The notes under the pieces are model-generated. The model did not search any database and was not told where the DNA came from. It saw only the letters and a program-made list of their open reading frames with translations. The position numbers and the translations under genes were made by a program. Below, piece by piece: positions 1-62,948 of a stretch of DNA of 64,000 nt. This DNA comes from Gemmatimonadota bacterium. GTDB taxonomy: Bacteria; Gemmatimonadota; Gemmatimonadetes; Gemmatimonadales; GWC2-71-9. The stretch is from assembly GCA_036679605.1 (NCBI GenBank), contig JAZDCZ010000365.1, forward strand, positions 1-64,000. The letters run 5' to 3'. Every line of letters starts with the position of its first letter. Positions within the stretch are counted from its first letter, which is position 1.

Positions 1-125
1 CGACACCGATCCGCTTCTCGCAAAATCCGCCGCTTGTACTCCAAGGTGAAACGCCGTCGCTTCGCCTTCGCCAATACCTCCACCTCCAGACCATGATCAG
101 AGAGAGCCACATCCTTCGTGTCCAT
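1..125 (-). CDS. IS3-family transposase OrfA, N-terminus (runs off the window start)
   Basis: Hand translation MDTKDVALSDHGLEVEVLAKAKRRRFTLEYKRRILREADRC; the RRxFTxEYKxxIL HTH start is typical of IS3 OrfA; AAGGAG RBS at 133-138 (minus). Not in the ORF track. Confidence 0.85.
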   Translation of the reverse strand, partial: MDTKDVALSDHGLEVEVLAKAKRRRFTLEYKRRILREADRC

Positions 126-198
126 CTCCATTCTCCTTCATCGCCCTGCTCACTAAACTAACAGTAGAAAGGTGTCTCACTCATATTGGCAGAGAGGG
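1..198 (-). mobile_element. Left end of an IS3-family insertion sequence
   Basis: Transposase start plus terminal-repeat-like sequence CCCTCTCTGCCAATATGAGTGAGACACC (minus, 198-171); the adjacent ORF is cut at this point. Confidence 0.7.
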
Positions 199-347
199 TC
201 GCCCCGAACCGAGTTGCTAGTCACTAGCAAGTGCTCTGCGCCAAAGAAAGAACCCACTATAGCATGTGTAGATTCGTGCAAGGCATATGAACTACCGAAT
301 ATTATGGAGGCGATAGCAATGACAGTTAGTGTGTTATATGGCTTCAA
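199..347 (-). pseudogene. 5' fragment of an M50-like HExxH membrane metalloprotease, interrupted by the IS
   Basis: TTG start, hydrophobic helix, then ALHESTHAIVGSFFGA; AT-rich; the frame runs into the IS end. Confidence 0.55.
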
Positions 348-521: not shown

Positions 522-622
522 GCTCGAATCAGGAGGTCGTACGGAGGTCCGCGACCCTTTCCGGATCTGTAGCAACCAGCGTCTCAACGACTTAGCAAAT
601 CGCTATTGAGGGCTGTTAATCC
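522..622 (+). repeat. att-like repeat R1
   Basis: GCTCGAATCAGGAGGTCGTACGGAGGTCCGCGACCCTTTCCGGATCTGTAGCAACCAGCGTCTCAACGACTTAGCAAATCGCTATTGAGGGCTGTTAATCC; a T-arm-like piece TCGGGTCGGGGGTT follows at 662-675. Confidence 0.9.
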
Positions 623-809
623 TAGGGTCTGCACGACGAGTGAGCGGAAGGATCCCACACATCGGGTCGGGGGTTGGAACTCCGCGCTTTGGATTGTGGG
701 GCTCTTATCGACAGACGCTCATCGGCATTTCATTCACTGCACGTCGTGACCTTGGGCTTGTGCGTCAAGTCCTTGAATAGCCGTTCGTTACCAACAACTG
801 CACCACCCA

Positions 810-1437: not shown

Positions 1438-1573
1438 TTAACCCATAGCTGACCTTGCCCGCAGTCGTCCCACCAGTACCTTTTGCTCAGCCCTCATTCT
1501 CGACCGGCCAGAATCCGAGGAGAAGTACCTATGGATGATTGGTCCTTCTGTCCCAAGTGCGGCACCAAGTTCG
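1438..1573 (+). repeat. Duplicated promoter/5' block A (copy of 15479-15613)
   Basis: Near-identical from TTAACCCATAGCTGACC through GAGGAG RBS and codons MDDWSFCPKCGTKF. Confidence 0.95.
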
Positions 1574-4533
1574 ATCCCGAGGCTAAGCAGTGCTCCAATT
1601 GCGGCGCAGCAACGCCCAGCGCCACTACAGTTGCGTCGGGAGACATACCCTCTGCCACTGACAGCGACCTTGAGGCGCTAGAGAGCGAACTCCGCGAGGC
1701 GCTTGCGCCGGGCCTGCAATTGATCAACCGCTTGGGCCAAGGCGGCATGGGCACGGTGTTCCTGGCTCGTGATCCCGCACTCAAGCGGAACGTAGTGGTG
1801 AAGGTCTTGTCTCCCGAATTGGCCCACGATCCCACCGCTCGGGCTCGGTTTGCGCGGGAAGCCGAGTCAGCCGCAGCGGTGTCACATCCCAACGTGATCA
1901 ACGTGTATTCAGTGGGAGAGTTACCTCGGTCTGGTACCAGCTACTTCGTGATGCAGCATGTAGATGGACCGACGCTCGCTGAAGAGTTTCCAGAGGGAAC
2001 GGCCGTTCCCGAGACACAGGCCAAGAAGGTCATTGGTGAGGTGGCCTCGGCGTTAGCAGCGGCACATGCACGCGGCCTGGTACACAGAGACATCAAGCCG
2101 AACAACATCATGATCGAGCGCGATAGTGGCCGTGCTATCGTGCTCGACTTCGGCATTAGTGCGGCGATTACGCCTGAAGTTGGAGCGACGAGCACGAAGC
2201 TGACTGTGCAGGGCACGTCAATTGGTACTCCTCAGTACATGAGTCCGGAGCAGGCTGCTGGAGAAGAGGTCACTGGAGCAAGCGATGTTTACAGCCTTGG
2301 TCTCGTAGCATTTGAGTTGGTTGCTGGACGGCCTCCCTTTGATGAATCGAATGCAATCGCGCTTGTCGCGGCTCACATCAACAAGGAGCCGGCGGGCGTG
2401 TCGACTCTCCGGCCCGAATTGGATGCGCAGCTGGCTCGTCTCATCGATCAATGTCTCTCAAAGTCACCGCAAGAGCGTCCTACGACAGACGAACTGTCAC
2501 GTGCGTTGACGCCACCGACCCATGCGACCATCGAGTGGCCACCCCCAGGTCTCGAGAAACTGCGTATCAAGAGCGCGAAGTTCCTTGCAGCACTCTGGAT
2601 GACCGTGATTGTAGTGCTGGCCATCTCCACGCTAACCGCCCTTCAACCCATTTCGCTCTCACCGCAGTGGTACGGTGAAGAGGATCAGTTCTTCTGGAGA
2701 ATAGTCTCGGCCATTGGTGCATTCTCGACAACCGATGCCTCCGGAGTGATAGGACAGCTGTGGTTGATCTCGCTGTGGTCGAGCTGGCTCCTACTCGTGG
2801 CGATGGCAGCCGCTCTCTTGTTGAGAGGATCTGCATTCACTCGCTCGCTGACATGGTCGAGAAAGTCGGGATACTCATGGGCCGTGCTTGCAGATCTGGT
2901 AATTGACACTGGGGAAGACACCGAAGGCGTTCTGAATCGCTCTGGCCTGTTTGCCTCTCTTTCAACCGGCGAGGCGGACCGCTTCATCAAGCTTCGGCGC
3001 TGGGCTGGTTTCTCTAAATTGTTGGGACTGGGATTGGGGTTTCTAGCGCCTGCGCTGTGGCTTCTGGGATACATCGGCGGTTTGATGCCGCATGGGACGC
3101 GCATACTGCCATTGGTAGAGGCCGCGCTCGTGCTTGGGCCAACCCTCCTCATGCTGGCCTTGTCGGTCGCCCTGCGAACTCCCGAGCGGCTCCATCACCG
3201 GCGAATCGGCTCTCGCAGAAAGAAGGGCAAGTCTTTGGTCAGAAGGGAGCTAGTGGACACGTGGCTGGCATCTGTGGGGCGGCCACCACGTACGCGAGTA
3301 TCGGGATTAGCAACCTTCTTGACTGCGCCTATACCGTCGTTGTTGGCATCATCGGTCACTTTCTTGCTGCTGGTTCTCATTGTGGTTGGTTTGGCAGTCG
3401 CCGCCGTCCAGCAGAGTGGCCTTGGGGAGAACCGGAGTGTTGCTCAACAATGGCTCCGAATGCGCCGCGGGCAAATGCCGTGGTACCGGCTCGACTCGGC
3501 TGTACAGGCTGCAGCGCTGCCGGTAGGTGTGAATGATTCAGCTGCGTTTGTGACTATGACCACGGTTGCGTTGAGTGGGGTGCTGCGTGTGGACCCTCAG
3601 GGTAACAGAAAAGATGAGCGTGATCGAATCTGGGCGGTCGATGCCCGAACACAGGTGGCTCAGGAGGACAGGAAGTTGGTTGCCGATCCCGTTCTTGCAT
3701 CACTCTGGAAGAATGGACTGCGCGACATTCCGGACACGATGATGGCGTTGCTGGAACACGACACGACAACCCAGTGGTTGGAGCTCTTTCGCAGAGCCGC
3801 GCGGTCGACGGTACCGTCCCTGTGGCAATTGCGTGACGGATTTCCCGGCGGAACGGCGGGTGCTTGGTTGGTGCCTGCGACCGAAGCCAGAGGTTACAGG
3901 ACGGGGGTATACGACCTCGCGACGCGAAACGAAGAGGCTGCCCTGCTGCAACTCGCAGCAAGGGATTGGAAGACGGCCGAACTCAGAGCTAGGGAAATCA
4001 TATCTGTGGGCCGCCACTTCTTGATCGAGCCTCTGGAGTGGATGAGCTGGATCGGTGCGCGCTTGATTGTCCGCGGTGCCCGAGTGTTGTCTCGAGTCGG
4101 AGAGGCAAGCACTAATGCCACAATGGTCGCCGAGGGCGCTCGACTGGAGGAGCTGTTCGATACCGATGACGATGTTCGAGGACGAGGTCGTTGGTCGGGC
4201 ATGTGGGTTGGTGAAGGGTTTCTCGCTTCCCGAGCGGTCGGGCGGCTGCTAATGGTTGACCCGGTAGATCCTCCGGGACTTGCCGCAATCGCTGACCGCA
4301 GGTTAGCACCGTTCGTTCGCTGGGAACTCGTCCGGCTCAGCCTGATGGCGCACTGTGCCAACCCAAGGGAATACCGCTTCGGGATCGATCCACTCCGCCT
4401 CACAGTGCTTGACAGTGCAGTGGTCCTGGCGGCAGATATTCCCCGCGTGGCGGAGTTGGGAGAGATGCTTCATCGAGAGTACGAGCGAATCCTGGCGATG
4501 CCGTTCTTGGAGAGGTTCTCGGAGTTTTGCTAA
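1531..4533 (+). CDS. Ser/Thr protein kinase K1: zinc ribbon, Hanks kinase, multi-TM region, C-terminal domain
   Basis: CPKC..CSNC; GQGGMG, VVVK, HRDIKPNN, DFG, GTPQYMSPE; several hydrophobic helices; RBS GAGGAG supports ATG 1531. Confidence 0.93.
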   Translation: MDDWSFCPKCGTKFDPEAKQCSNCGAATPSATTVASGDIPSATDSDLEALESELREALAPGLQLINRLGQGGMGTVFLARDPALKRNVVVKVLSPELAHDPTARARFAREAESAAAVSHPNVINVYSVGELPRSGTSYFVMQHVDGPTLAEEFPEGTAVPETQAKKVIGEVASALAAAHARGLVHRDIKPNNIMIERDSGRAIVLDFGISAAITPEVGATSTKLTVQGTSIGTPQYMSPEQAAGEEVTGASDVYSLGLVAFELVAGRPPFDESNAIALVAAHINKEPAGVSTLRPELDAQLARLIDQCLSKSPQERPTTDELSRALTPPTHATIEWPPPGLEKLRIKSAKFLAALWMTVIVVLAISTLTALQPISLSPQWYGEEDQFFWRIVSAIGAFSTTDASGVIGQLWLISLWSSWLLLVAMAAALLLRGSAFTRSLTWSRKSGYSWAVLADLVIDTGEDTEGVLNRSGLFASLSTGEADRFIKLRRWAGFSKLLGLGLGFLAPALWLLGYIGGLMPHGTRILPLVEAALVLGPTLLMLALSVALRTPERLHHRRIGSRRKKGKSLVRRELVDTWLASVGRPPRTRVSGLATFLTAPIPSLLASSVTFLLLVLIVVGLAVAAVQQSGLGENRSVAQQWLRMRRGQMPWYRLDSAVQAAALPVGVNDSAAFVTMTTVALSGVLRVDPQGNRKDERDRIWAVDARTQVAQEDRKLVADPVLASLWKNGLRDIPDTMMALLEHDTTTQWLELFRRAARSTVPSLWQLRDGFPGGTAGAWLVPATEARGYRTGVYDLATRNEEAALLQLAARDWKTAELRAREIISVGRHFLIEPLEWMSWIGARLIVRGARVLSRVGEASTNATMVAEGARLEELFDTDDDVRGRGRWSGMWVGEGFLASRAVGRLLMVDPVDPPGLAAIADRRLAPFVRWELVRLSLMAHCANPREYRFGIDPLRLTVLDSAVVLAADIPRVAELGEMLHREYERILAMPFLERFSEFC

Positions 4534-4683: not shown

Positions 4684-4754
4684 AGGGAAGGCGTCTCGAC
4701 TCACTCTCCCTCAAGTCAACGCAACCTATCCTTTAAGCTCTGGAAGTGATCGCG

Positions 4755-5939
4755 ATGAAATTTCTACAATTGTCCATGGTGTTCCTGCTAACTCTGTGGG
4801 GCGTTCCGAGCTACGCACTCAGCCAGAATTCCACAGACGAGCTAATCAAGATTATCGAGGGCGTACAACACCCCGATAGGCAAGGACTTGATTCATATAC
4901 CCTCAATGAGCTGATGGATCGATTTGGGGTTCCTGGCGTCAGTATCGCAGTCATCAAGGACTTCAAAATTCACTGGGCGAAAGGGTATGGTATTGCCGAC
5001 GTGGAGACAGGTGCAAGAGTCGATACCGAGACATTATTTCAGGCCGCATCCATCAGCAAGCCTGTCAATGCGATGGCTGTGTTAAGAGCTGCCCAAGACG
5101 GCAAATTCTCTATGGATGACGATATCAACACCATTCTGAAATCGTGGAAATTGCCCGACAGCCCATTCACGAAAAATCAGTCTGTATCCCCCCGCATGCT
5201 GGCCAGCCATACTTCCGGCTTAGGCGATGGATTTGGTTTCCCGGGTTATGATCCGTCCGATCCTCGCCCAACAACGATCCAGATCCTCAATAACGATAAA
5301 CCTTCGAATGTCGGGCCGGTGTTGCTCGCAAGACCTCCTATGACCGCATTCCATTACTCAGGGGGCGGCGTGACGATTTTGCAGCTGGCACTGACCGATG
5401 TGATCGGCAGACCCTATCCAGAGATTCTTCAGGAATATGTATTGGGACCGGTTGGCATGACGCAAAGTACATTCGAGCAACCACTGTCTCCTGAACGTGA
5501 TAAGAATGCGGCTCGGGCTCACGGCGGCGGCGGCGAGGCAGGGGATGTAAAATGGCATGTCTACCCCGAACTTGCTGCCGCAGGATTATGGACCACGCCT
5601 ACGGATCTAGCAAAATTTGCGATTGAAGTGCAGAAGTCCCTACGAGGTGAAGCGAATAACGTGCTTTCACCGACGATGATCAAAGAGATGTTGAGCCCGG
5701 TCGGTGTCGGCGATTATGCCGTCGGCTTCTCAGTCACTAAGGAAGGTCAGGGATGGTACTTCGGCCATGGCGGCGGTAACTGGGGTTTCAGGTGTCTACT
5801 GGCAGCACACAAAGTAAAAGGCTACGGATTCGCTATTATGACGAACGCTCAAAACGGTGGCAACATAACGAATGAACTGAAGCGGCGTATTGAGCGAGCG
5901 TATGGCTATGATTCACTGGACAAGCCCGTCCGACGTTAG
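4755..5939 (+). CDS. Secreted serine hydrolase, beta-lactamase class C/AmpC-like family
   Basis: Signal peptide; FQAASISK (SxxK), FHYSGGG, FGHGGG. Confidence 0.9.
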   Translation: MKFLQLSMVFLLTLWGVPSYALSQNSTDELIKIIEGVQHPDRQGLDSYTLNELMDRFGVPGVSIAVIKDFKIHWAKGYGIADVETGARVDTETLFQAASISKPVNAMAVLRAAQDGKFSMDDDINTILKSWKLPDSPFTKNQSVSPRMLASHTSGLGDGFGFPGYDPSDPRPTTIQILNNDKPSNVGPVLLARPPMTAFHYSGGGVTILQLALTDVIGRPYPEILQEYVLGPVGMTQSTFEQPLSPERDKNAARAHGGGGEAGDVKWHVYPELAAAGLWTTPTDLAKFAIEVQKSLRGEANNVLSPTMIKEMLSPVGVGDYAVGFSVTKEGQGWYFGHGGGNWGFRCLLAAHKVKGYGFAIMTNAQNGGNITNELKRRIERAYGYDSLDKPVRR

Positions 5940-5971
5940 CCGTGCCGGGCTCTCGATGCCACAAAGCGGTA

Positions 5972-6086
5972 GTTCTTATCAGGAGGTCGTAAGGAGGTCC
6001 GCGACTCTTGCGGTGTCTGTAGCAACCAGCGTATCAACGACTTAGCAAGTCGCTATTGACGGCTGTTAACCGTCGGGTCGGGGGTT
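5972..6086 (+). repeat. att-like repeat R2 (most complete copy)
   Basis: GGAGGTC x2; TATCAACGACTTA (6032-6044) matches IHF consensus WATCARNNNNTTR; ends in a tRNA-like fragment. Confidence 0.9.
6058..6086 (+). pseudogene. tRNA-Asn(GTT) fragment: anticodon arm, variable loop, 5' T-stem
   Basis: GACGG-CTGTTAA-CCGTC perfect 5-bp stem with 7-nt loop, then GGGTC, then GGGGG-TT; no D-arm or acceptor stem. Confidence 0.7.
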
Positions 6087-6293
6087 GACCATCACGCGTC
6101 TTCGATCCGCTTGGCTGCGCCTGCGCGTCGAGTCCCTCCTCCGGAGTTCCGCAGAGTCCAAACGACTCCGCGTCACTCACGACGTAACTGACAGGAAACG
6201 CCATGCGGCAACCAAGGTCCGTCGCTAGGGAGACGACACCCCTCTTCACGAGAAACTTCTTAATGGTGTTAGTTGCCGGCGGCCAGCTACCGT

Positions 6294-8159
6294 TCACCCA
6301 AGCTCCGCTACAGCCCGAAGTGCCTGTTCTATGGCTGCTTGAGTGTAGGCGGAGGCAGCCGCATCGGAATTTGCGATGGTGATGTTTCCGATGGGTTGCC
6401 GCGCGATCTCATGCGGCGCCCTCCCCGGTTCCCATTCAGGGTCCCACAGCTCGAGATAATCGTAGGCGTATCCGTGCGGCCAGCGGTTGACGGTGATGGC
6501 CAGGATATCATCGGCCACATCGAAACCGCCAGGACCAAGCATACGGTCGAGCACCGTACGGACTTCGCGCTCGAAGTCCTCGAAGGTCAGGCCCAGCATG
6601 ATTCCCCTGGCCGCCCGAAGTTGATCGTGAATGGGAACGTCACGGCGCGGGGGAGCGATCGTGCCCCAGAACATGAGTGGCACCGGACCCGTGTCATTGT
6701 TGCTGGGTCGATACCCCGCCGTGTGTACCCCGTCGATCAACCAGACCTTGGCATGCATGCGGCCAGGGCAGTACGCACCCGAGATACCAAGTCGGTCGAG
6801 CGCTTCACGGCTTCGCACCAGGACATTGGTCAGCAGCATGGGATGCTTGACCTGATATCGTTGCGCCTCTTGCTGTGCCTCGGGCACTTCCGGACACAGG
6901 TGAGGAATGATCGCATGATAGCAGGCCAACACTGCGTGGTGGGCACGTACACGCACGACCGATCCATCCCGGACGTACGTCGCCGTGACCTCACCGTCGG
7001 CATTGGCGATATGCACGGCCGTGGATTCGAGACGCAGGCGAACCGGAGAGCTGGGGCGATCGAGTTGTGCATAGTCGAACCGCGCTACGGCGATGTTCTG
7101 CGAGTTGGCCGCTGGGGCAATGGCGGGAATGAGCGAGCGGACCAGCAGCCGAGCAATGGACGCGTTGCCATCGGGGAACATGGCCACGGCTTCGGATTCC
7201 TCCGAGCCCGCCACCCGATCGGCGGCGTCTCCCAGAAGATGCGATCCGGGCAACCATGCCTGCATGGCCTCGGCAGCCGAAAGGCTGTGGGTCTGCACGC
7301 CCCAGTACCCGTCCATTGCCTTGATGAACAGTTCGACGACGTCGTCGGGAAGGCCGGCGTGTACGGACAGGAACTCCGTGTAACTCGTCCCATGCAACAC
7401 GCGATCGATTTCCGACTCGTCCATCCCCTCCAGCACGGTTGCATCGGCGGCATAGAATCGCTTCAGCGCAGCACGTCCCGATTCGCTAATGGGAAACCGA
7501 TCGATGCTGTCTAGCGCGTCCAGGTTTCTGCTGTACATGGAGAATCCGGGCACCATGACATCGCGTCCGTACGTCTCGGCGTCGAACCAGATGGCCGGCT
7601 TGTCGGCGCCGTAATGGAACTCCAGCTCGCTGCTCAGGCGATGGACGTCGATACCCAGCTCTTCCAGAAACCCGAGGACGGTGTCACTGAACGAGAGGAA
7701 CTCCAGATTCATCGTCCCGCCCCACGATAGTCGCATGACACCGTCGTGATGAAACTCGTTGCGCTTGGCGTGGCCACCGAAGTCATCGTGATTGTCGAGG
7801 ATCAGGATGCGTGATTCCGACCCAAACCTCTTGCGATACTGATACGCCGCCGTCAGACCGCTGATGCCGGCGCCGACGACCACGAGGTCGTAGTGCTCGT
7901 CGAGGTCCACGGGATCGTCGAATCGGACACCCTCGCGAGCGAGGGCGTGGGCGGTTTCGAACGAACCCGGATGTGAGCCCCGCATTCCCGTCCTGGCGGG
8001 CGGGTAGTCCGCGCCTGGGGGCATCACGATGTGGCCCGGGGTCTTGCTCGAGCACCCCGAGGTAGCCATAAGGCCCAACGCGGCGAGCCCAGTGTCGTGA
8101 ATGAAGTCGCGACGGCTGATCTGTCGCTGCATGCCGAGTTCGCGATCCGATTTTCTCAC
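6294..8159 (-). CDS. Tat-exported FAD-dependent oxidoreductase, spermidine dehydrogenase SpdH-like
   Basis: SRRDFI Tat motif; YPPARTGMRGSHPGSFETAH; GAGISG; FGGHAKRNEF; NRWPHGYAY. Confidence 0.85.
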   Translation of the reverse strand: MRKSDRELGMQRQISRRDFIHDTGLAALGLMATSGCSSKTPGHIVMPPGADYPPARTGMRGSHPGSFETAHALAREGVRFDDPVDLDEHYDLVVVGAGISGLTAAYQYRKRFGSESRILILDNHDDFGGHAKRNEFHHDGVMRLSWGGTMNLEFLSFSDTVLGFLEELGIDVHRLSSELEFHYGADKPAIWFDAETYGRDVMVPGFSMYSRNLDALDSIDRFPISESGRAALKRFYAADATVLEGMDESEIDRVLHGTSYTEFLSVHAGLPDDVVELFIKAMDGYWGVQTHSLSAAEAMQAWLPGSHLLGDAADRVAGSEESEAVAMFPDGNASIARLLVRSLIPAIAPAANSQNIAVARFDYAQLDRPSSPVRLRLESTAVHIANADGEVTATYVRDGSVVRVRAHHAVLACYHAIIPHLCPEVPEAQQEAQRYQVKHPMLLTNVLVRSREALDRLGISGAYCPGRMHAKVWLIDGVHTAGYRPSNNDTGPVPLMFWGTIAPPRRDVPIHDQLRAARGIMLGLTFEDFEREVRTVLDRMLGPGGFDVADDILAITVNRWPHGYAYDYLELWDPEWEPGRAPHEIARQPIGNITIANSDAAASAYTQAAIEQALRAVAELG

Positions 8160-8333: not shown

Positions 8334-8351
8334 GCTCTGATCAGGAGGTCG
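8334..8351 (+). repeat. att-like repeat R3 (truncated)
   Basis: GCTCTGATCAGGAGGTCG at the same distance from the kinase ATG as R5. Confidence 0.7.
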
Positions 8352-8390
8352 AGGAGTGAGAGCGGGTTCGAAGAAAGGACGGGTGGAGGT

Positions 8391-11339
8391 CTACCGCCTT
8401 TCCCCTTTCAATCGTGCCAGCGCCCCACGTATTTCGTCCACTTCGGGTTGGACCGACGGTTCGGGGTCGCTCCGCAGTGCAAGATACTGAGAGTATGCAT
8501 CGATGGCCCGATCGCGGTCTCCCGCAAGTTCGGCGAGCCGACCGGATTCCCTTAGATGCGTGGCAAGAGGGAGCATATATCCCAAGTAGTATTCATGTCT
8601 GCCGGCTGCCGCGGACGCCCGGGCGTATGCCCCTTCGCCCTCGAGCAGACGGGCCAGGAAGAGATTCTCCCACCTAGGCCGGTAGGGTCTCGTCAGCAAC
8701 AATTCGTCTAGTCTGTCGATCAACTGGCCGGCATCGGCTTGACCGCGACGCTGTGCCAACGCGGCCTCTAGGAGATCGGCACAGACCATATCCCTCGCTG
8801 GGGGCCACGTAGGATCGCGATCGATATGACGGTCGCGAAGTTCTCGAGTAATGGGCGGAATGGCGTCAAACCGATTGTGTTCGAACTGCCACAACACCAT
8901 TGCACACAAATCACGCCCTCCGATGGTGGCTTCGCCAGAGGCCGCTACCTGTTCCTCTAACTCACGATACGCCCTGAATCCCTCCACCGAATCACCAGAC
9001 CGCAGCATCGATGAAAACAGCCATCCGGCCGGGCCGATGTTCCCACGCCGAGCTGCTTCGGCTGCTTCAACCGGTCGCCCAGCATCCCACGCCAAGAAGG
9101 CCTCCCGTGCTGACACTCTCTCTCGTCCTACTTCGCTGACCGTTACCCGGCGTAGCCGAGCCATGAACTCGCGAAAGTCCGAAATGTGGTTGACGGCAAA
9201 CGGCAACATGAGTGCGACGCCTTGGACAACCGGACGGTCGATGGTCCCGGTATCGAGGAGTGCAAGGGCCGCGTTTCGTAAGGCCGTGTCGCCCAACACC
9301 ACTCCAGCGAGCCAGCGTTCCGGAATCCCAGCAACGGGATCGCCGACCGCGGCGTCGTTGAGACGCATGTAGCGGCGAATGTCAGCCGTGTCTCCGCGGT
9401 TGACGGCAAGCAGAAAGAGGTGCTGCAGCGGACCGGCAACCGAGGAATCCCGTTCGACCGCCCGGGCGAAGGCGCGCTCGGCCCGGAGGAACGGGTCATC
9501 GACCCCCAGCAGGTTGCCGTCGTGCATGTAGCTGTCACCGAGAAAGTACCACGCCTCCGAGCGGTCCTCGGCAATCCTCACCGCCTCCTCTCGAGCTCGC
9601 AACAACGTGGCACCATTGTCCGGATCCGGTCCGTTGGTCCCCATTACCGCGGTCACGATGGCACGGTCCTTAGTTCCTAGGTCGTCTCTACCGCGCCAGG
9701 CTGCTCGTTGTCCGATGGCATAGACCCGACCCCCAGCTGTAGCGGACCAACCGTTCGCCTTCACCAACCCCACTCCCGCCAACGCGAAGTTGGTGTCCGT
9801 CTCCAGCGCCTCTGTAAACCGGTTCACGGCTTCCGAATACCGCGCACTGCGGTACTCGACCTGGCCACGGAGATAGGCCCGGAGCGCCGGAAGCGACGCG
9901 GTCAGATTCGCACTTTGCTCGGCGCCGATACCCGCTGTTCGCGCGAGAAGTTGTCCGACGAAGCGCGGCAATAGCGCGAGGGCGCTGTCCGCCGGTCCTT
10001 CGACGTTGGCCTGCACGGACGCGACTCGGCCGTCGACAGAGGCGAGTGACCCTCGCAGCACGAGCCGGGCATCGGATTCGACCACGGCCCCGGTGAGCAC
10101 GAGACCGGCACCGAGCGAACGCGCCAACTCGATCGCCTGCACTTCATCGAGATCTTCGCGGTCCGACGATACCTCACGCCGCCACGCGCTTATCACGGTA
10201 CCCGGGTCGGCCGACATCGGCGTCCCGCCTTCGCCGGTCAAGAACGTGGCCATGAGATCGACCATGCCCTCACGCAGGTCGGCCACCTGATCGGCCGAGC
10301 CAACCACCCGGAACGGGAGAACGACAACGAGGTTCTCGTCGAGCGCCGTCGCGCCACCCGTACGCCCGAGGGCAAACCATCCGATGAAGACCAAGGCAAC
10401 CGCGGCGACCGCCATCCCTGCCCGACGACCGAGCTTCGGACTCACCGCCGACACAGCACTCACGGGCCGAGTATCGGTCGGTGTCATGCCGACACTTGGC
10501 GTGGCAATCCCCTCGAGCCGCGTGAGTAACTCATCCGCGCTCTGCCACCGATCCGCCGCTTTCTTCTCCAAGCACCGCATCACGAGATCCGCCAAGGGTG
10601 CGGGAACCGTTGCTCGACGTGTCGTGACGGGCGTCGCCGGTTCGGTAACGTGAGCTGCGAGGATCTGTTGCGGGCTACTCCCCGTGAACGGCGGTGCGCC
10701 AGTCAGCATCTCATACGCCATCGCCCCAAAAGCGTAGATGTCCGCGCGATGATCGATGTGGGGGTCAGCAGAGGCTTGCTCCGGCGACATGTAGGACGGC
10801 GTTCCAAGAGCGACCCCTGCTGTCGTGATCGCGTGACGCCCGGTCGCCTCGCTTATCGCCTTAGCCACACCAAAGTCCGCGACGAGTGCGTGCCGATCGG
10901 CCAGCATCACGTTGTCGGGCTTGATGTCGCGGTGCACCACTCCTTGCGCGTGAGCCTTAGCGAGCGCGTCCGCGACTTCCTTGAGAATACGCACGGCATC
11001 GGAGATCGGTAACTCGCCTTCACGCGCCAATCGCTCACGCAACGATTCCCCCTCCACGTACGGCATCACATAGAACAGGAATCCGTCGGCTTCGCCGGAA
11101 TCGTAGAGCGGCAGAATGTGGGGATGCGTAAGGCCTGCCGCGATCTCGATCTCGCGCACGAACCGCTCCGGTCCGACGGTTTCACTCAGTTCAGCCCGCA
11201 ACACTTTCACGGCCACCTTGCGGTGGTGCTTCAAGTCTTCGGCGAGATAGACCGTGGCCATGCCACCCGCACCGACTTCCTTCTCTATGGAATAGCGGTC
11301 GGCGAGAGCTGCCTTGAGGCGATCGAAGATGTCGGACAT
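8391..11339 (-). CDS. Ser/Thr protein kinase K2: kinase, single TM, TolB-N-like domain, TPR-like helical region
   Basis: GAGGMATVY, VAVK, HRDIKPDN, DFG, GTPSYMSPE; TM AMAVAAVALVFIGWFAL; LVVVLPF. Confidence 0.93.
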   Translation of the reverse strand: MSDIFDRLKAALADRYSIEKEVGAGGMATVYLAEDLKHHRKVAVKVLRAELSETVGPERFVREIEIAAGLTHPHILPLYDSGEADGFLFYVMPYVEGESLRERLAREGELPISDAVRILKEVADALAKAHAQGVVHRDIKPDNVMLADRHALVADFGVAKAISEATGRHAITTAGVALGTPSYMSPEQASADPHIDHRADIYAFGAMAYEMLTGAPPFTGSSPQQILAAHVTEPATPVTTRRATVPAPLADLVMRCLEKKAADRWQSADELLTRLEGIATPSVGMTPTDTRPVSAVSAVSPKLGRRAGMAVAAVALVFIGWFALGRTGGATALDENLVVVLPFRVVGSADQVADLREGMVDLMATFLTGEGGTPMSADPGTVISAWRREVSSDREDLDEVQAIELARSLGAGLVLTGAVVESDARLVLRGSLASVDGRVASVQANVEGPADSALALLPRFVGQLLARTAGIGAEQSANLTASLPALRAYLRGQVEYRSARYSEAVNRFTEALETDTNFALAGVGLVKANGWSATAGGRVYAIGQRAAWRGRDDLGTKDRAIVTAVMGTNGPDPDNGATLLRAREEAVRIAEDRSEAWYFLGDSYMHDGNLLGVDDPFLRAERAFARAVERDSSVAGPLQHLFLLAVNRGDTADIRRYMRLNDAAVGDPVAGIPERWLAGVVLGDTALRNAALALLDTGTIDRPVVQGVALMLPFAVNHISDFREFMARLRRVTVSEVGRERVSAREAFLAWDAGRPVEAAEAARRGNIGPAGWLFSSMLRSGDSVEGFRAYRELEEQVAASGEATIGGRDLCAMVLWQFEHNRFDAIPPITRELRDRHIDRDPTWPPARDMVCADLLEAALAQRRGQADAGQLIDRLDELLLTRPYRPRWENLFLARLLEGEGAYARASAAAGRHEYYLGYMLPLATHLRESGRLAELAGDRDRAIDAYSQYLALRSDPEPSVQPEVDEIRGALARLKGERR

Positions 11340-11376
11340 GAGGGACAGCAATATAGGAGGCGCTCGCTCTTGGCGC

Positions 11377-11448
11377 GAGGTCGTACGGAGGTCTGCGACC
11401 CTTTCCGGATCTGTAGCAACCAGTGTCTCAACGACTTAGCAAGTCGGA
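11377..11448 (+). repeat. att-like repeat R4
   Basis: GAGGTCGTACGGAGGTCTGCGACCCTTTCCGGATCTGTAGCAACCAGTGTCTCAACGACTTAGCAAGTCGGA; abuts the hspQ stop. Confidence 0.9.
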
Positions 11449-11795: not shown

Positions 11796-14186
11796 TCATT
11801 GGTTCACCGCCGCCAACCCGACGCGTTCGCGAAGTGCCTGGAACCGTGGGTCGTCGTGCAATCGATATAAGAGGGGGTTGTGGGTCAACTCGCCGACGAC
11901 CGAACGGTCACGAACGTCGACGGCGCGCTCCAACAACGCGAACGCTGAGTCTGGGTTCCCCATGGCGAATTGGCCCATTGCCATCGTCGAAAACCACGGA
12001 GGATCACTCTGCCGCGCGACTTCTTCCAGTTGACGGTAGGCCGCGGTCGCCTCCTCCGGACGGTTGGCGCCCGCGAAGATCATCACGCGTTGGTTCCAAT
12101 CCCATGCAGTACGCACCCCTCCCGCGAGTGTCTCCGACAAGTTCTGTTCCTCCTCGGCCTCCGGGTACCGCCCCTGGAAGGTATAGGTCCACGATAGCAG
12201 GGAATGGGCCTCCCAAAAAGACGGATCCAGTTCGATCGAGCGTCGGCCCGCTGCGATAGCCGGTTCGTATTGTTCGGCGGCAGCCAGCCACCAGCCTAGG
12301 TCGCTGTGCCATTGCGCCGTCGAGGGCTCGAGATCGATGGCCTTCTGTACCGTTGCGATCGCCGAATCGATGCGGCCCATGTCGGCAAGAAACAAGGCGT
12401 ACCGTGAGTACTGGTTTGCGTATGGCGCCAGTTCCAACCCGCGCAGGAACGATCGTTCGGCGGCTTCGAACTCCCAGTCGATGTAGTACTCCTTGAAGCC
12501 CCGGGTCACGTACGCCACCCCAAGTTGGTTGTCGATCGCAAGCGCCGCGTTAACCGCGCGATCGATGAGTGCGCTCGCCGAATCGGCGCCAATCCATCCG
12601 TAAAAGAGCATGGTCTCGTACGCGAGGGCCACCCCCTCATAGGCTGCGGCGAGCGTCGAGTCCCGTGCGATCGCTCGATTGAAATGATCCAAACCTCTTC
12701 TGACACCATCCTTGGTCCATCGTAGCGTCTGTTGTCTCCCCAAGAGCAATTGAGCGTATGCCTCCTGATCAACCTGGCGGGTGTCTGCGAGTCTTGCCTC
12801 CTGCTCGGGAGTAATCTCCTGTTGAATCTGTTCCGCCATCTCCCGCGCGATAGCGTTCTGGAGAGTCATGACATCCACGGCACGTTCATCGTAGGTCTTG
12901 GACCAGAGGTTCTCCTGTGACTGCGGCTCCATGAGTTCAATCGCGAGGCGCACGCGATCCGACGCTACCAACAGTCGACCAAACACCAGAGCGTCAACGT
13001 TCAGTTCATTCGCAATCTCTCTAGGCGACAGGTCAGTATCGCGGTATTTCGCCACTGCACGGGCGCCTACAATGCGTACACCCATGTTCGTGAGCACGCT
13101 AATGATGTCGTAGGTTATCCCCTCCGCGTAGAAGTTCTGCGTCGAATCACCGGTAGCATTCTCGAGTGGCAACACTGCGATCCGCTCGATCGCTGATGAT
13201 CCTCCGCCGCCGCGCATGGCCCACCATCCAAAGAGGGCGACACCTATCAAGACGGTCGCGACCCCGTACGTCCGAAGTGATTGTGTTATCGGTGCGTGCG
13301 CCGCCGTCACTGGCCGCGTGTCCGTCGGCGTCATCCCAACGCTCGGCGTCGTCATCGTCTCGAACTGCTGTGCCAGCTCGTCCGCGCTCTGCCAACGATC
13401 TGCGGGCTTCTTCTCGAGGCACCGCATGATGAGCGCTGCAAGCACGGGAGGTATGGCCGGTCGGTATTCCGAGACCTGCACTGGCGTCTCCGTCACGTGC
13501 GCAGACAGAACCATCTGTGCCGTATGCCCGTCGAACGGCGTTCGCCCGGCTACCATTTCGTATGCCATGGCGCCTAGCGCGTAGATGTCCGACCGATGAT
13601 CGATGTTTGGGTCCGCGGTAGCTTGTTCAGGTGACATGTAGGACGGTGTCCCTAGTGCAATCCCCGCGGTCGTCAGCTTCTCCTGTCCCGTGGCTTCGCT
13701 CACCGCCTTCGCAACACCAAAATCAGTCACCACCGCGTGACGCCCAGACAGCATGACGTTGTCGGGCTTGATGTCTCGGTGCACGATGCCCTCGCCGTGC
13801 GCAAAGGCGAGCGCGTCGGCCACACCGCGCAGGATCCGCACGGCCTCGGCGATGGGCAGTTCGTGTTCCCGATCCAGCCGGTCACGCAGTGATTCGCCCT
13901 TGATGTAGGGCATGACATACCAGAGAAAACCGTCCGTCTCGCCCGAATCGTAGAGCGGGACGATGTGCGGATGCTGGAGACCAGCCGCCATCTTGATCTC
14001 GCGCAGGAAACGATCGCTCCCGATGTGCATCGCCAGGTCGGGACGTAGCACCTTGACCGCCACCTGGCGGTCGTGCTTGACGTCGTGCGCGAGGTATACG
14101 GTCGCCATGCCGCCGGCACCCAACTCTTCCTGGATGGCGTAGTGGTCGGCGAGGGCGATTTTGAGACGGTCGACTTGATCGGACAT
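11796..14186 (-). CDS. Ser/Thr protein kinase K3: kinase, TM, TolB-N-like domain, TPRs
   Basis: All Hanks motifs; IAVLPLEN; EAYAQLLLG; TPR repeats; DPRFQAL C-terminus. Confidence 0.93.
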   Translation of the reverse strand: MSDQVDRLKIALADHYAIQEELGAGGMATVYLAHDVKHDRQVAVKVLRPDLAMHIGSDRFLREIKMAAGLQHPHIVPLYDSGETDGFLWYVMPYIKGESLRDRLDREHELPIAEAVRILRGVADALAFAHGEGIVHRDIKPDNVMLSGRHAVVTDFGVAKAVSEATGQEKLTTAGIALGTPSYMSPEQATADPNIDHRSDIYALGAMAYEMVAGRTPFDGHTAQMVLSAHVTETPVQVSEYRPAIPPVLAALIMRCLEKKPADRWQSADELAQQFETMTTPSVGMTPTDTRPVTAAHAPITQSLRTYGVATVLIGVALFGWWAMRGGGGSSAIERIAVLPLENATGDSTQNFYAEGITYDIISVLTNMGVRIVGARAVAKYRDTDLSPREIANELNVDALVFGRLLVASDRVRLAIELMEPQSQENLWSKTYDERAVDVMTLQNAIAREMAEQIQQEITPEQEARLADTRQVDQEAYAQLLLGRQQTLRWTKDGVRRGLDHFNRAIARDSTLAAAYEGVALAYETMLFYGWIGADSASALIDRAVNAALAIDNQLGVAYVTRGFKEYYIDWEFEAAERSFLRGLELAPYANQYSRYALFLADMGRIDSAIATVQKAIDLEPSTAQWHSDLGWWLAAAEQYEPAIAAGRRSIELDPSFWEAHSLLSWTYTFQGRYPEAEEEQNLSETLAGGVRTAWDWNQRVMIFAGANRPEEATAAYRQLEEVARQSDPPWFSTMAMGQFAMGNPDSAFALLERAVDVRDRSVVGELTHNPLLYRLHDDPRFQALRERVGLAAVNQ

Positions 14187-14253: not shown

Positions 14254-14354
14254 GCTCGAATCCGGAGGTCGTAGGGAGGTCCGCGACCCTTTCCGGATCT
14301 GCAGCAATCAGCGTCTCAATTGCTTAGCAAGTCGGAAGGAACCGCAGTTAACCG
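14254..14354 (+). repeat. att-like repeat R5
   Basis: GCTCGAATCCGGAGGTCGTAGGGAGGTCCGCGACCCTTTCCGGATCTGCAGCAATCAGCGTCTCAATTGCTTAGCAAGTCGG...GTTAACCG. Confidence 0.9.
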
Positions 14355-15702: not shown

Positions 15703-17835
15703 ATGACCGCACCTGACCGTATCTGCACATCCTGCGATGCTAGAGTGGCTGCCGATGCCGCGTTCTGCCCAAAGTGCGGCAGTCAAGTAGCGGCGGGAGT
15801 TCCTGCAACCTCCGACCCCCTCTTGGCTGCCCTGGAACGTGCGGTGGGCTCACAGTACGAGATCACCAGACTCTTGGGTCGAGGCGGCATGGGATCGGTG
15901 TATCTGGCGCGTGAGACCGCGCTGGACAGGCTCGTTGCCATCAAGGTGCTGACCCCTGAAGGAGCAGACGCCGAGAGCTACGAGCGGTTTCGCCGGGAGG
16001 CGAAGACCGCCGCCAGGCTAACCCACCCCAATATCGTGCCGCTCTACACGTTCGGCGAAGCCCAAGGCGTAATGTACTTCGTCATGGGCTACGTGAGTGG
16101 TGAGTCATTGGGTGCCAGGCTCAAGCGGATGGGGAAGACCGATCCGAATGAAGCGCGTCGCATTATCGCCGATATAGCGGCGGCGTTGCATTACGCGCAT
16201 CAGCAGGGAGTGGTGCATCGTGACATCAAGCCCGACAACATCCTGATCGACGATGACAGTAACAAGCCGATGCTCACGGACTTTGGCGTCGCTAAGACTC
16301 TCGCACGCGGTGAGACGTTGACGCAGATCGGTGCCACACTCGGCACGCCACATTACATGTCACCCGAACAGGCCGCCGGTGACCGCGAGATCGACGGCAG
16401 GAGCGATCTCTACTCGCTGGGCGTCGTAGGCTATCAGATGTTGTCGGGGCGGCTGCCGTTTGAGGGTGACAGCGTGCGCGACGTACTGGTACAACACGTA
16501 ACGAAGGAACCAGTTCCTATCGGCGTGTTGGATCCTACGGTCCCGGAAGACCTGGCCCGTGTGATCGACCAGTGCATGGCCAAGGACAGCGACGAAAGGA
16601 TGAGTGACGGCGAGGCCGTGCATACTGCACTCGGCGTGCAAAAGGGCGCGCACGACTTGATACCGGCAGACATGGAAGACAGTGTACAAACGTTGAGGCT
16701 TCTCGGCTGGCTGAGTGGAGGTTTGCTCACTCTGTCGAACAACATGTTCACCGCCTGGATGTGGGGCCGCGTAGCGAGTGATGCTTGGTCAGGAGCGTGG
16801 TTGGCATTGGGTGGAATTGGGTTGTTTGCCGTCCCGGCGTTGACGATGCGGTGGACTAAGAAATTCGGCCGGCACTCCTGGCGGGATATTTTAAAGTGGG
16901 TGTTTCGGCAGCCCGCCCGTTGGACCATGTGGTGGCCGCGTCCATTCAGGCGTCAGGACGACATGTGGGATCGGCTTCCCAAGCCGGTCAAGCGCGGTCG
17001 TGTCGCGCAGGGTTGGCTTGCCGGGTCCGGTAGCCTGTTCGTCGCCACGGTCCCCGGCTTTTTTTGGCTAGTCGTTTCATCGGATTGGGTGTTTTATCCT
17101 GAAAATGCGATGATCGCTCTCATGGTGGTGTTGGGGGGCACAATCGGTTGGCCAATGCTTGAGGCGGTACGTATTGATCGCTGGGCCAAGCGGATCGGAC
17201 TGCCCAAAGCGATCAGGAAAAAGTTGTGGTCGGCTCCGACCGCCGATGTTGACTTTTGGACCAAGCCTCCCCTGAACCAGTTTCTGCGTGGCGGATCGAT
17301 CCAGGGGAAGCTCGCTGGTGAGAGCTTGCCACAAACGCCTCCTGCCTACCTGCAAGCCATCGAGAACGCAGTTATCGAGCTAGATGGTGCTCCGAAACAA
17401 ATAACTAGAGATGCTGCGGCAGTGGGCCGCGAGTTGCTCGGTCACATCGAGAGACTGGATGAGCAGATCCGCAGTCTCGGTGAAGAGACCGATCCGGGCG
17501 AGGTCGCTCAACTAGAACAGAAGCTGATGGCACTGGGTGACCCGTCCGACTCGGAGAGCAATTCCCAAACCCGCAAGCGGGAGTTGTTGGCAGAGCAGCT
17601 GGAGCTTGCCCGGCGCATGATCACCCAGTTTGAGAGCGCTAAGGAACGCCGCGATCGCCTGCTTGAGATGCTCAAGACCGTATGGCGGCAAGTCTCGAAC
17701 CTCAAAGCCCAAGCTGCGGACCCCACCTTCGATGGGCGTGAGGTCAGTGCCAAGGTGCGTGCGATCTCGGACGACATGCGGCGGTATCAGGAGGCGTCTG
17801 ATGAGACGATCCAGATCGTCGATGAGAACACATAG
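15703..17835 (+). CDS. Ser/Thr protein kinase K4: zinc ribbon, kinase, about 4 TM, coiled coil
   Basis: CTSC..CPKC; GRGGMG, VAIK, HRDIKPDN, DFG, GTPHYMSPE. Confidence 0.93.
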   Translation: MTAPDRICTSCDARVAADAAFCPKCGSQVAAGVPATSDPLLAALERAVGSQYEITRLLGRGGMGSVYLARETALDRLVAIKVLTPEGADAESYERFRREAKTAARLTHPNIVPLYTFGEAQGVMYFVMGYVSGESLGARLKRMGKTDPNEARRIIADIAAALHYAHQQGVVHRDIKPDNILIDDDSNKPMLTDFGVAKTLARGETLTQIGATLGTPHYMSPEQAAGDREIDGRSDLYSLGVVGYQMLSGRLPFEGDSVRDVLVQHVTKEPVPIGVLDPTVPEDLARVIDQCMAKDSDERMSDGEAVHTALGVQKGAHDLIPADMEDSVQTLRLLGWLSGGLLTLSNNMFTAWMWGRVASDAWSGAWLALGGIGLFAVPALTMRWTKKFGRHSWRDILKWVFRQPARWTMWWPRPFRRQDDMWDRLPKPVKRGRVAQGWLAGSGSLFVATVPGFFWLVVSSDWVFYPENAMIALMVVLGGTIGWPMLEAVRIDRWAKRIGLPKAIRKKLWSAPTADVDFWTKPPLNQFLRGGSIQGKLAGESLPQTPPAYLQAIENAVIELDGAPKQITRDAAAVGRELLGHIERLDEQIRSLGEETDPGEVAQLEQKLMALGDPSDSESNSQTRKRELLAEQLELARRMITQFESAKERRDRLLEMLKTVWRQVSNLKAQAADPTFDGREVSAKVRAISDDMRRYQEASDETIQIVDENT

Positions 17836-17895: not shown

Positions 17896-18531
17896 CTAGT
17901 TGGTCCTGATTAGGATGAAGACTGACAGGGCCACCTGGGCAACTGATAGGAGCAGGAAAAGGTCCTGACGGGTAAATGACTTTCGCGATACTACTACCTG
18001 ATCTCCTGACCGGATGCCCACTTCCTGTAAGGTCTGTCCCCTCATGGTCTGATCCTCGAAGCTCACGAGCGACTCGCCACCCGTCCGTAATAGTTTGATC
18101 TTGTTCATGTTGCCCGCCTGGGTGGGGCCTCCTGCCAGCGCCACAATCTCCACAACGGTCAAGGTGGGATCGACGGTGAGAAGTCCCGGCCGCTGCACCT
18201 CGCCCAATACCGCAACGCGGAAGCCCAGCGTGATCGTAACGAAGGGGCTCTTGAAGAGGACATCCAGGCCCGTGCGGATTCGATCGCGCACTTCGCTCAG
18301 TGTGAGGTTTCTCGCATCGATCGATCCCACAATCGGGTATTCGAATTTTCCGGTCTCGTCGATTTGGAACTTACCCGAGAAATCCTCCTGGCCCCACACG
18401 GTAATCTGAAGCACGTCCCCGGGTCTCAGACTGTACTGAGCGCCACTGGAGGTGACCAGCCCCTGGACTTGGGCGGAGAGCGGCTGCGCGACGAAAATCG
18501 CGGCGACGAGGAGCTTGGCAATCTTTCGCAT
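17896..18531 (-). CDS. Polysaccharide export/SLBB-domain protein (Wza-like)
   Basis: YSLRPGDVLQITVW, VAVLGEVQRPG, ALAGG, GDQVVV. Confidence 0.85.
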   Translation of the reverse strand: MRKIAKLLVAAIFVAQPLSAQVQGLVTSSGAQYSLRPGDVLQITVWGQEDFSGKFQIDETGKFEYPIVGSIDARNLTLSEVRDRIRTGLDVLFKSPFVTITLGFRVAVLGEVQRPGLLTVDPTLTVVEIVALAGGPTQAGNMNKIKLLRTGGESLVSFEDQTMRGQTLQEVGIRSGDQVVVSRKSFTRQDLFLLLSVAQVALSVFILIRTN

Positions 18532-18547
18532 GAACTAAGATTGTAGG

Positions 18548-21379: not shown

Positions 21380-21465
21380 GGCGTGAAGCATACCCGACCG
21401 GTTCGGTCCGGTACAAGTGCAAGCGTTGACCGGAGCCGCCTGCAGTGCCAAGCTTCCCGTGGATC

Positions 21466-62874: not shown

Positions 62875-62948
<74 letters not shown>

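Follow-up and report, generated by a model that had tools for sequence, protein, structure and literature searches.

The window analysed here is a stretch of 64,000 nt from a Gemmatimonadota bacterium (G000:C296:1-64000, where G000 is a 6.7-Mb genome bin). It opens with one end of a multi-copy IS-like element, possibly of the IS3 type, and continues with a row of repeats, R1 to R5, set among cargo genes that are mostly Ser/Thr kinases and include a cupredoxin-domain protein (Table 1). A non-coding stretch of 90 nt behind R2 (6185-6275) recurs at C419 (92%) and C5 (86%), and is possibly the end of another mobile element.

Table 1. Repeats, cargo genes and adjoining features of the array, in window coordinates unless a contig is named.
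Feature	Position	Strand	Remarks	Basis
End of multi-copy IS-like element	1..205	-	Other end closes contig C334	
R1	532..675	+	Doublet 532-549, motif 582-594, loop 613-619, insert of ~42 nt after loop	Motif positions
Zinc-ribbon Ser/Thr kinase	1483..4533	+	Cargo	
Beta-lactamase-family serine hydrolase	4746..5939	+	Cargo; ends 43 nt before R2 doublet	
R2 arm-type doublet GGAGGTC-N4-GGAGGTC	5982..5999	+	Predicted integrase arm sites, P arm	Sequence comparison
R2 IHF-consensus motif	6032..6044	+	Predicted DNA-bending host-factor site, 50 nt from doublet start	Sequence match
R2 displaced tRNA-Asn(GTT), positions 27-55	6058..6086	+	Identical to C334:76732-76760	Alignment
R2 anticodon loop CTGTTAA	6063..6069	+	Predicted 7-bp overlap	Motif position
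R2 42-nt insert	6087..6128	+	Between T55 and C56, T-loop	Alignment to tRNA gene
R2 remaining tRNA-Asn 3' end, positions 56-73	6129..6146	+	18/18	Alignment
R2 trailer hairpin	6147..6182	+	Related to DNA directly 3' of intact tRNA-Asn	
FAD/NAD-binding oxidoreductase	6294..8159	-	Cargo	
R3	8344..8391	+	Two heptamers only, an extra 30 nt apart; motif and core absent	
Ser/Thr kinase	8391..11351	-	Cargo; start adjoins R4	
R4	11376..11446	+	Doublet (1 mismatch) and host-factor motif; tRNA core absent	
Ser/Thr kinase with TPR repeats	11796..14186	-	Cargo; start adjoins R5	
R5	14264..14354	+	Doublet, motif, loop with 1 mismatch and 3 tRNA bases	
Second zinc-ribbon kinase	15703..17835	+	Cargo; last gene before host wza-uvrA	
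R0	C334:79213		Further copy	

The R2 copy of arm, motif and core was the subject of an earlier note that read it as arm-like direct repeats, an IHF site and a tRNA-Asn anticodon core. Each element was confirmed in place: the GGAGGTC doublet, the motif TATCAACGACTTA, which has no mismatch to WATCAANNNNTTR, and the core at 6058-6086. That note had held that its reading would fail if the host tRNA-Asn differed from the core. The comparison did not refute it: among four tRNA-Asn(GTT) calls in the bin, the gene at C334:76706-76779 matches the core at 29 of 29 positions. The tRNA sequence resumes behind a 42-nt insert, a feature absent from the earlier description, and is followed by a trailer (6128-6182 is 81% identical to the DNA 3' of the intact gene). 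With 18 of 18 tRNA positions and the trailer present beyond the insert, R2 is a complete displaced 3' half carrying an insert, not a truncation. ARAGORN called no tRNA at the repeats. Elsewhere in the bin, a 155-kb contig (C343), likely a large phage or plasmid, carries several tRNA arrays that include two more tRNA-Asn genes. Eight related tRNA-like calls of 85-89 nt that combine long variable arms with an Ala or Val anticodon (on C91, C154, C162, C214, C88, C93 and C401) are possibly degenerate or element-borne tRNA-Leu-type genes.

The exact doublet occurs five times in the 6.7-Mb genome, against 0.08 expected, and always at the tRNA-Asn array locus. Four occurrences precede a core and one follows the loop of the intact gene at a distance of 282 nt from the anticodon loop; R4 adds a doublet with one mismatch. 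Exact IHF consensus matches number 96 genome-wide, or 0.014 per kb. The motif differs from WATCAANNNNTTR at one position in R0 and, as noted earlier, in R1, R4 and R5, at one position in the metagenomic junction L032 described below, and at two in L029, a junction from another genome. Among the other copies, the form seen most often (TCTCAA...) differs from that of R2 by a single substitution, so the family consensus itself has one mismatch. Two further observations of the earlier note also held: R1 keeps the loop and, further on, a variable-loop/T-arm piece (663-675), which stops at T55, and R5 keeps CAGTTAACCG, from 14345.

Relationships among the copies are uneven. The spacers of R1, R4 and R5 are 88-94% alike, and R1 is a mosaic with an R4/R5-type spacer and an R0/R2-type core. 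The core of R5 is only 56-67% like those of R0-R2 (56% for R1), versus 94% identity between its core-proximal part and the attP-like junction of L032. R0, R1 and L029 share a similar insert after the anticodon loop. The description of the copies as being in varying states of decay is correct in that cores are damaged or missing; the damage is partly non-random, affecting the anticodon loop at its 3' edge and the T-loop. At the former position, R0, R1 (window 620-661) and L029 carry a second insert family of ~41-43 nt, which replaces the core half-site.

The spacing of the elements follows the tRNA. The doublet starts 50 nt ahead of the motif in five copies of G000 and in junctions of other organisms, and 81 nt ahead of the loop in seven junctions (R0, R1, R2, R5, L032, L029 and one in the related genome G107). 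Although L029 and G107 have spacers only 31-44% like those of G000, the arm-to-loop spacing is invariant. The TCAAnnnnTTA motif keeps the same offset in all seven junctions except that of G107, which sits 6.8 kb behind tRNA-Asn and has a degraded host-factor motif (46% identity). In R0, R1, L029 and L032, identity to the tRNA begins 1-2 nt before the loop, which fits a loop-centred crossover. A run from another study (X2) gave one further arm-plus-core junction.

An opposite arm is also present. Directly 3' of the intact tRNA-Asn gene on C334 lie a repeat of the last 19 bases of the gene, a AACGGGTTAG motif and the same doublet (C334:77019); this is the attL-side arm (P'). Whole or in part, it recurs behind tRNA-Asn in three of the 400 genomes searched (G009, G107 and G178). 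On this side, the distance from C56 to the AACGGGTTAG motif is 60-61 nt in five of six junctions measured, and the motif lies 88 nt from the doublet in both G000 and L032. The repeat of the gene's last 19 bases, together with a 90-nt hairpin-rich spacer, forms a 109-nt piece (L034, G000:C334:76780-76888) that shifts the attL arm outward by its own length. Similar 3'-end repeats are found behind tRNA-Cys, -Lys and -Pro in G000 and behind tRNA-Asn in G107.

The metagenomic junction L032 unites these parts in a single sequence, in the order P arm, loop, whole unbroken tRNA 3' half, P' arm, doublet, and the C-terminal stump of a tyrosine integrase. Its two doublets are 254 nt apart, with an 11-bp period, and the closest full-length relatives of the stump are PF00589 proteins that are 67-80% identical. 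Where related integrases are linked to other tRNAs, a perfect 7-N4-7 doublet, different from one integrase to the next, was found within ~200 nt of the tRNA at six of ten loci. Invariant spacing, the opposite arm and the L032 junction with its integrase stump support the order arm, host-factor site and anticodon-loop core that was proposed earlier, and we infer from these sequence features that the repeats are att arms with a 7-bp crossover in the anticodon loop. The accompanying assignment to attR/attL-type junctions needs dividing: every copy in the window is of the attR type (P arm), and the only attL is the one on C334.

The identity of the host factor is a separate matter. G000 encodes two PF00216 proteins, one closest to ihfB (on C170; 92 bits, cut-off 115) and the other closest to HU; both score below the curated cut-offs. 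A look-alike of the motif is present on the opposite arm. This look-alike and the conserved position make some host-factor role for TCAAnnnnTTA likely on sequence grounds, and the label of an IHF site is a prediction. In the parts of the mv4 preprint consulted (bioRxiv 10.1101/2023.11.06.565760), IHF is confined to Proteobacteria and mv4 requires no host factor.

Searches for a cognate integrase returned none. In G000 there are 35 PF00589 matches, of which the best full-length match to the relative P0014 reaches ~30%, and no array unit contains an integrase gene. Across 400 genomes of the phylum and 330 of the family, integrase matches were either partial at 35-76% or near full length at 40-51%, and lay at other tRNAs or at none. 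Viral integrase scans gave 23 loci (10 inspected) and one further locus, none with these arms, and a search of integrase N-termini did not find the arm motif. No intact integrase lay beside these arms in any sequence searched, leaving the L032 stump as the sole link. Scanning for doublet plus loop gave three matches in GTDB, one of them real (L029); L030 and L031 were dropped for want of tRNA context. The same scan gave two matches in metagenomes, one real (L032) and one dropped (L033), and none in viral sequences. The doublet by itself occurs in 26 of 400 other genomes, similar to the ~23 genomes with a backwards control, and among those 26 it is tRNA-linked only in G107.

How the window relates to C334 depends on the IS-like element. 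The end of C334 and the start of the window are the two ends of one such element, compatible in orientation and bounded by an identical 3-bp flank; the contig ends C87 and C26 form a second pair, with a different 3-bp flank in common. Orientation and flank indicate that the array is probably continuous across C334 and the window, although no contig among those listed bridged the element. On C334 itself, R0 lies downstream of the intact tRNA-Asn and is co-oriented with it. As read from the sequence, the order is probably tRNA-Asn, opposite arm, R0, IS, R1-R5 and host wza-uvrA (17896-21451). In all five relatives examined (L022, L023, L025, L026 and L069), tRNA-Asn directly follows uvrA or uvrA-wza. 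In G000, it is the far end of the array that uvrA/wza face, and tRNA-Asn and its promoter are on the other strand; the block of tRNA plus array seems to have been inverted or moved.

We consider it probable, with good confidence, that each repeat is the attR of a tyrosine-integrase island inserted at the tRNA-Asn anticodon loop, and that the row is a pile-up of related islands now without integrases. The arm domain of the integrase would bind the GGAGGTC pairs, an IHF/HU-family protein would bend the DNA at TCAAnnnnTTA, and strand exchange would span the 7-nt loop. Every circle that came in would restore the tRNA and push the old 3' half, with the older islands, downstream. Later deletions may have removed the left arms of inner junctions and the integrase genes, copies may have recombined with each other, and short insertions, at the edge of the loop in R0 and R1 and in the T-loop in R2, may have damaged the displaced halves. 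With such damage, the array is now probably fixed. Repeated acquisition is favoured by the R5 core, nearer to L032 than to R0-R2, and by the insert that R0 and R1 have in common with L029. Points against the pile-up include the failure to find a cognate integrase in G000, the inner junctions, none of which has the P' arm that simple tandem integration would leave, the basis of the link between C334 and the window in IS orientation and a 3-bp flank, and the degraded host-factor motif of the G107 junction.

The missing inner P' arms would also fit an attR origin with only one or two integrations, the remaining copies having arisen by local duplication of a block of kinase start plus attR, with gene replacement and conversion. 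The likeness of the R1, R4 and R5 spacers and the mosaic R1 fit this account, and the mosaic, together with the duplicated blocks, indicates that local recombination contributed. Two non-coding blocks are repeated within the array (w1438-1573/w15479-15613, 93%; w4600-4683/w17757-17840, 89%), as are the kinase 5' ends beside R1, R3, R4 and R5, so some copies may indeed be local duplications. As an explanation of the whole row we nevertheless think it unlikely. Core types are common with other organisms more than among the copies, R5 matching L032 far better than R1; a kinase start also lies beside the P arm in L032 and L029, which marks it as a trait of the element family; and the cargo varies from unit to unit.

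The position of R1, R3, R4 and R5 just upstream of opposite-strand kinase starts could also suggest a regulatory element, an operator pair with a bending site, next to which the tRNA piece is incidental. This is very improbable. The motif lies within 500 bp of only 2 of 106 kinase 5'-end matches (the stumps at R1 and R3 are not among these matches), and together with the kinase starts by the arm in L032 and L029 this points to a trait of the element rather than to control of the kinases. Moreover, R0 and R2 have no adjacent kinase, the distances are constant relative to the tRNA loop and not to the start codon, and no sigma-70-like promoter was found at 5850-6350.

Because the repeats point the same way, with blocks of one to three genes between them, they might be taken for recombination sites of an active cassette array, either integron-like attC or attR x attR exchange. 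We give this very little credence: neither strand forms a significant hairpin (z 0.17 and -1.52), visual inspection showed no flanking attC-type inverted cores, R0, R1, R3, R4 and R5 have a missing or damaged core, and a repeat-to-repeat joint is not among the 15 of 168 joints listed. Finally, a discrete structured non-coding RNA, for which the tRNA anticodon hairpin within the repeat might speak, can be practically dismissed, since no Rfam match at E<=5 overlaps any copy (window 1-26000 gave two sub-threshold matches, neither on a repeat), folding is no better than for shuffles, and what is conserved is a set of three short motifs whose distances are fixed, the spacers between them being free to vary.

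If the copies are attR ends of a pile-up of islands, the state of their displaced tRNA halves becomes of interest. Displaced halves in G000 were collected by an exact 15-mer ending at T55, which gave 17, one of them dropped as a chance match. Six of the remaining 16 are unbroken and ten are interrupted. Eight of the interrupted halves break at T55 and resume after 16-77 nt, one also breaks there but continues only 10.4 kb further on, and one breaks a few bases past T55 and looks like a deletion product. The tRNA pieces of R0, R1 and L029 likewise stop at T55.

The inserts are related. That of R2 resembles inserts in tRNA-Met, -Lys and -Pro fragments of G000 and in a tRNA-Asn fragment of G107; YTCGRTCCGCT is common to 11 of 12 inserts hand-picked for alignment, and a related insert is also found at GGTT^CA of the tRNA-Pro anticodon arm. 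Combined with a CGCGT end, YTCGRTCCGCT occurs seven times in the 6.7 Mb of G000, six of them inside tRNA fragments. A narrow T-loop pattern matched 12 of 390 other genomes, with no control matches. Four are real and come from the same family (G014, G143, G152 and G178); eight matches from family f6 were dropped after three of them showed no tRNA context. G107, with an insert clearly related to that of R2, is a fifth related genome. Among viral matches to the pattern, 5 of 11 were inspected and none was tRNA-linked. The R2 insert folds no better than shuffles.

At three diagnostic positions the insert flanks in G000 and G107 follow the tRNA-Asn of their own host, which suggests separate insertions, though gene conversion could give the same result. 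In G152, the 3' half is intact and has behind it a short repeat with the insert, a layout that represents a second route, as its collapse can yield the R2 form. A tentative reading, which we regard as possible while leaning against it, is that a gene-less family of mobile inserts of 16-78 nt (GAY...YTCGRTCCGCT...CGCGT) targets tRNA GGTT^CR, survives only in displaced halves and grounds islands irreversibly. Excision would then rebuild a broken tRNA gene, and islands with their kinase cargo would pile up irreversibly. This reading is supported by the spread of related inserts over fragments of tRNA-Asn, -Met, -Lys and -Pro, by the case in the tRNA-Pro anticodon arm, and by their presence, in two genera, within the tRNA-Asn variant that belongs to the respective host. 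Five Y1/HUH transposase matches in G000 are no more than candidates for a mobilising enzyme.

Comparable arrangements were seen at other tRNAs. The tRNA-Ile(GAT) gene at window 62875-62948 has a displaced half 6 kb downstream (C296:68995-69080), its T-loop split by a 42-nt insert. L035 (G000:C87) contains two 3' halves of tRNA-Met(CAT), whose T-loop inserts are nearly identical, together with a third 3' end, and these adjoin a zinc-ribbon kinase 87% like window 1528-2552. At L167 (G000:C173:163154-173555), the T55 break in a tRNA-Arg(CCG) half is followed 10.4 kb on by the remainder, beside a kinase start, with a second full tRNA-Arg gene between the two parts. A tRNA-Pro(GGG) array of the same build in G152 (L165-L166, G152:C1:256000-273000) comes with an arm doublet of its own, T-loop inserts and two stumps of integrases.

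The repeats are thus likely the attR-type ends of integrase-less tRNA-Asn islands, a known kind of scar. Their att architecture is textbook, and the T-loop inserts alone go beyond it. The att system predicted from sequence alone is complete, with arm pairs, a host-factor motif on both arms and a 7-bp overlap, and belongs to an uncharacterised integrase clade; it could become an integration tool in a poorly cultured phylum. Pile-up of tRNA-anchored islands would be one route by which G000 has gained Ser/Thr kinases. The T-loop inserts would matter more if mobile, since they would then lock islands in place; island ends that carry them escape tools that require an intact 3' tRNA fragment. The literature searched, mostly outside subscription journals, yielded no description of kinase islands in Gemmatimonadota or of a T-loop insertion element.

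Several known systems bear on these findings, each compared here through the sections of the source that were consulted. REP and CGTC-tagged palindromes (PMC3733652) are small, GC-rich and partly hairpin-forming, like the T-loop insert, and the right junction in R2 is CGTC. In contrast to these abundant, dispersed elements, the T-loop inserts are low-copy and lie in tRNA-derived DNA (6 of 7 motif matches), and the tRNA mentions in those sections concern tRNA-synthetase and modification genes, not tRNA loops. The attP sites of mv4 and lambda have a 7-bp overlap, as predicted for the tRNA-Asn array, whose target differs in being tRNA-Asn (bioRxiv 10.1101/2023.11.06.565760). In mv4, an adjacent pair of 11-bp direct-repeat arm sites ends each arm of a 215-bp attP, and the layout of L032, with an arm doublet on each side, is mv4-like (same preprint).

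Islands catalogued by Islander at the anticodon-centred 'A' site likewise show a regenerated tRNA, a co-oriented displaced 3' fragment and an anticodon-loop crossover (PMC4383910). Its Table 1 lists 125 tandems of two or more and four of three or more; unlike those islands, the tRNA-Asn array has no integrase in any unit. What is described there as 'damage' is a small deletion located 3 bp ahead of the discriminator, whereas R2 has a 42-nt insert at T55/C56, with which its main piece would fail the internal-fragment filter of Islander.

A close parallel is offered by the CIMEs and microCIMEs of Streptococcus salivarius (PMC7563491, in the sections consulted), which have also kept att sites, lost recombination genes and become stacked at one target; the 109-nt piece behind the intact tRNA-Asn is near microCIME size (130-220 bp). 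A CIME unit is expected to be bounded by an attL and an attR of its own, while the inner junctions here keep the right-hand arm only, and the sole P' arm of the array stands behind the intact gene. No intact parent element of the array was found. Its cargo of mainly Ser/Thr kinases also sets it apart from the CIMEs, as does its number of units, five to six against two or three in S. salivarius. The tRNA-Asn array matches the CIME-like accretion of islands that is known at tRNA genes.
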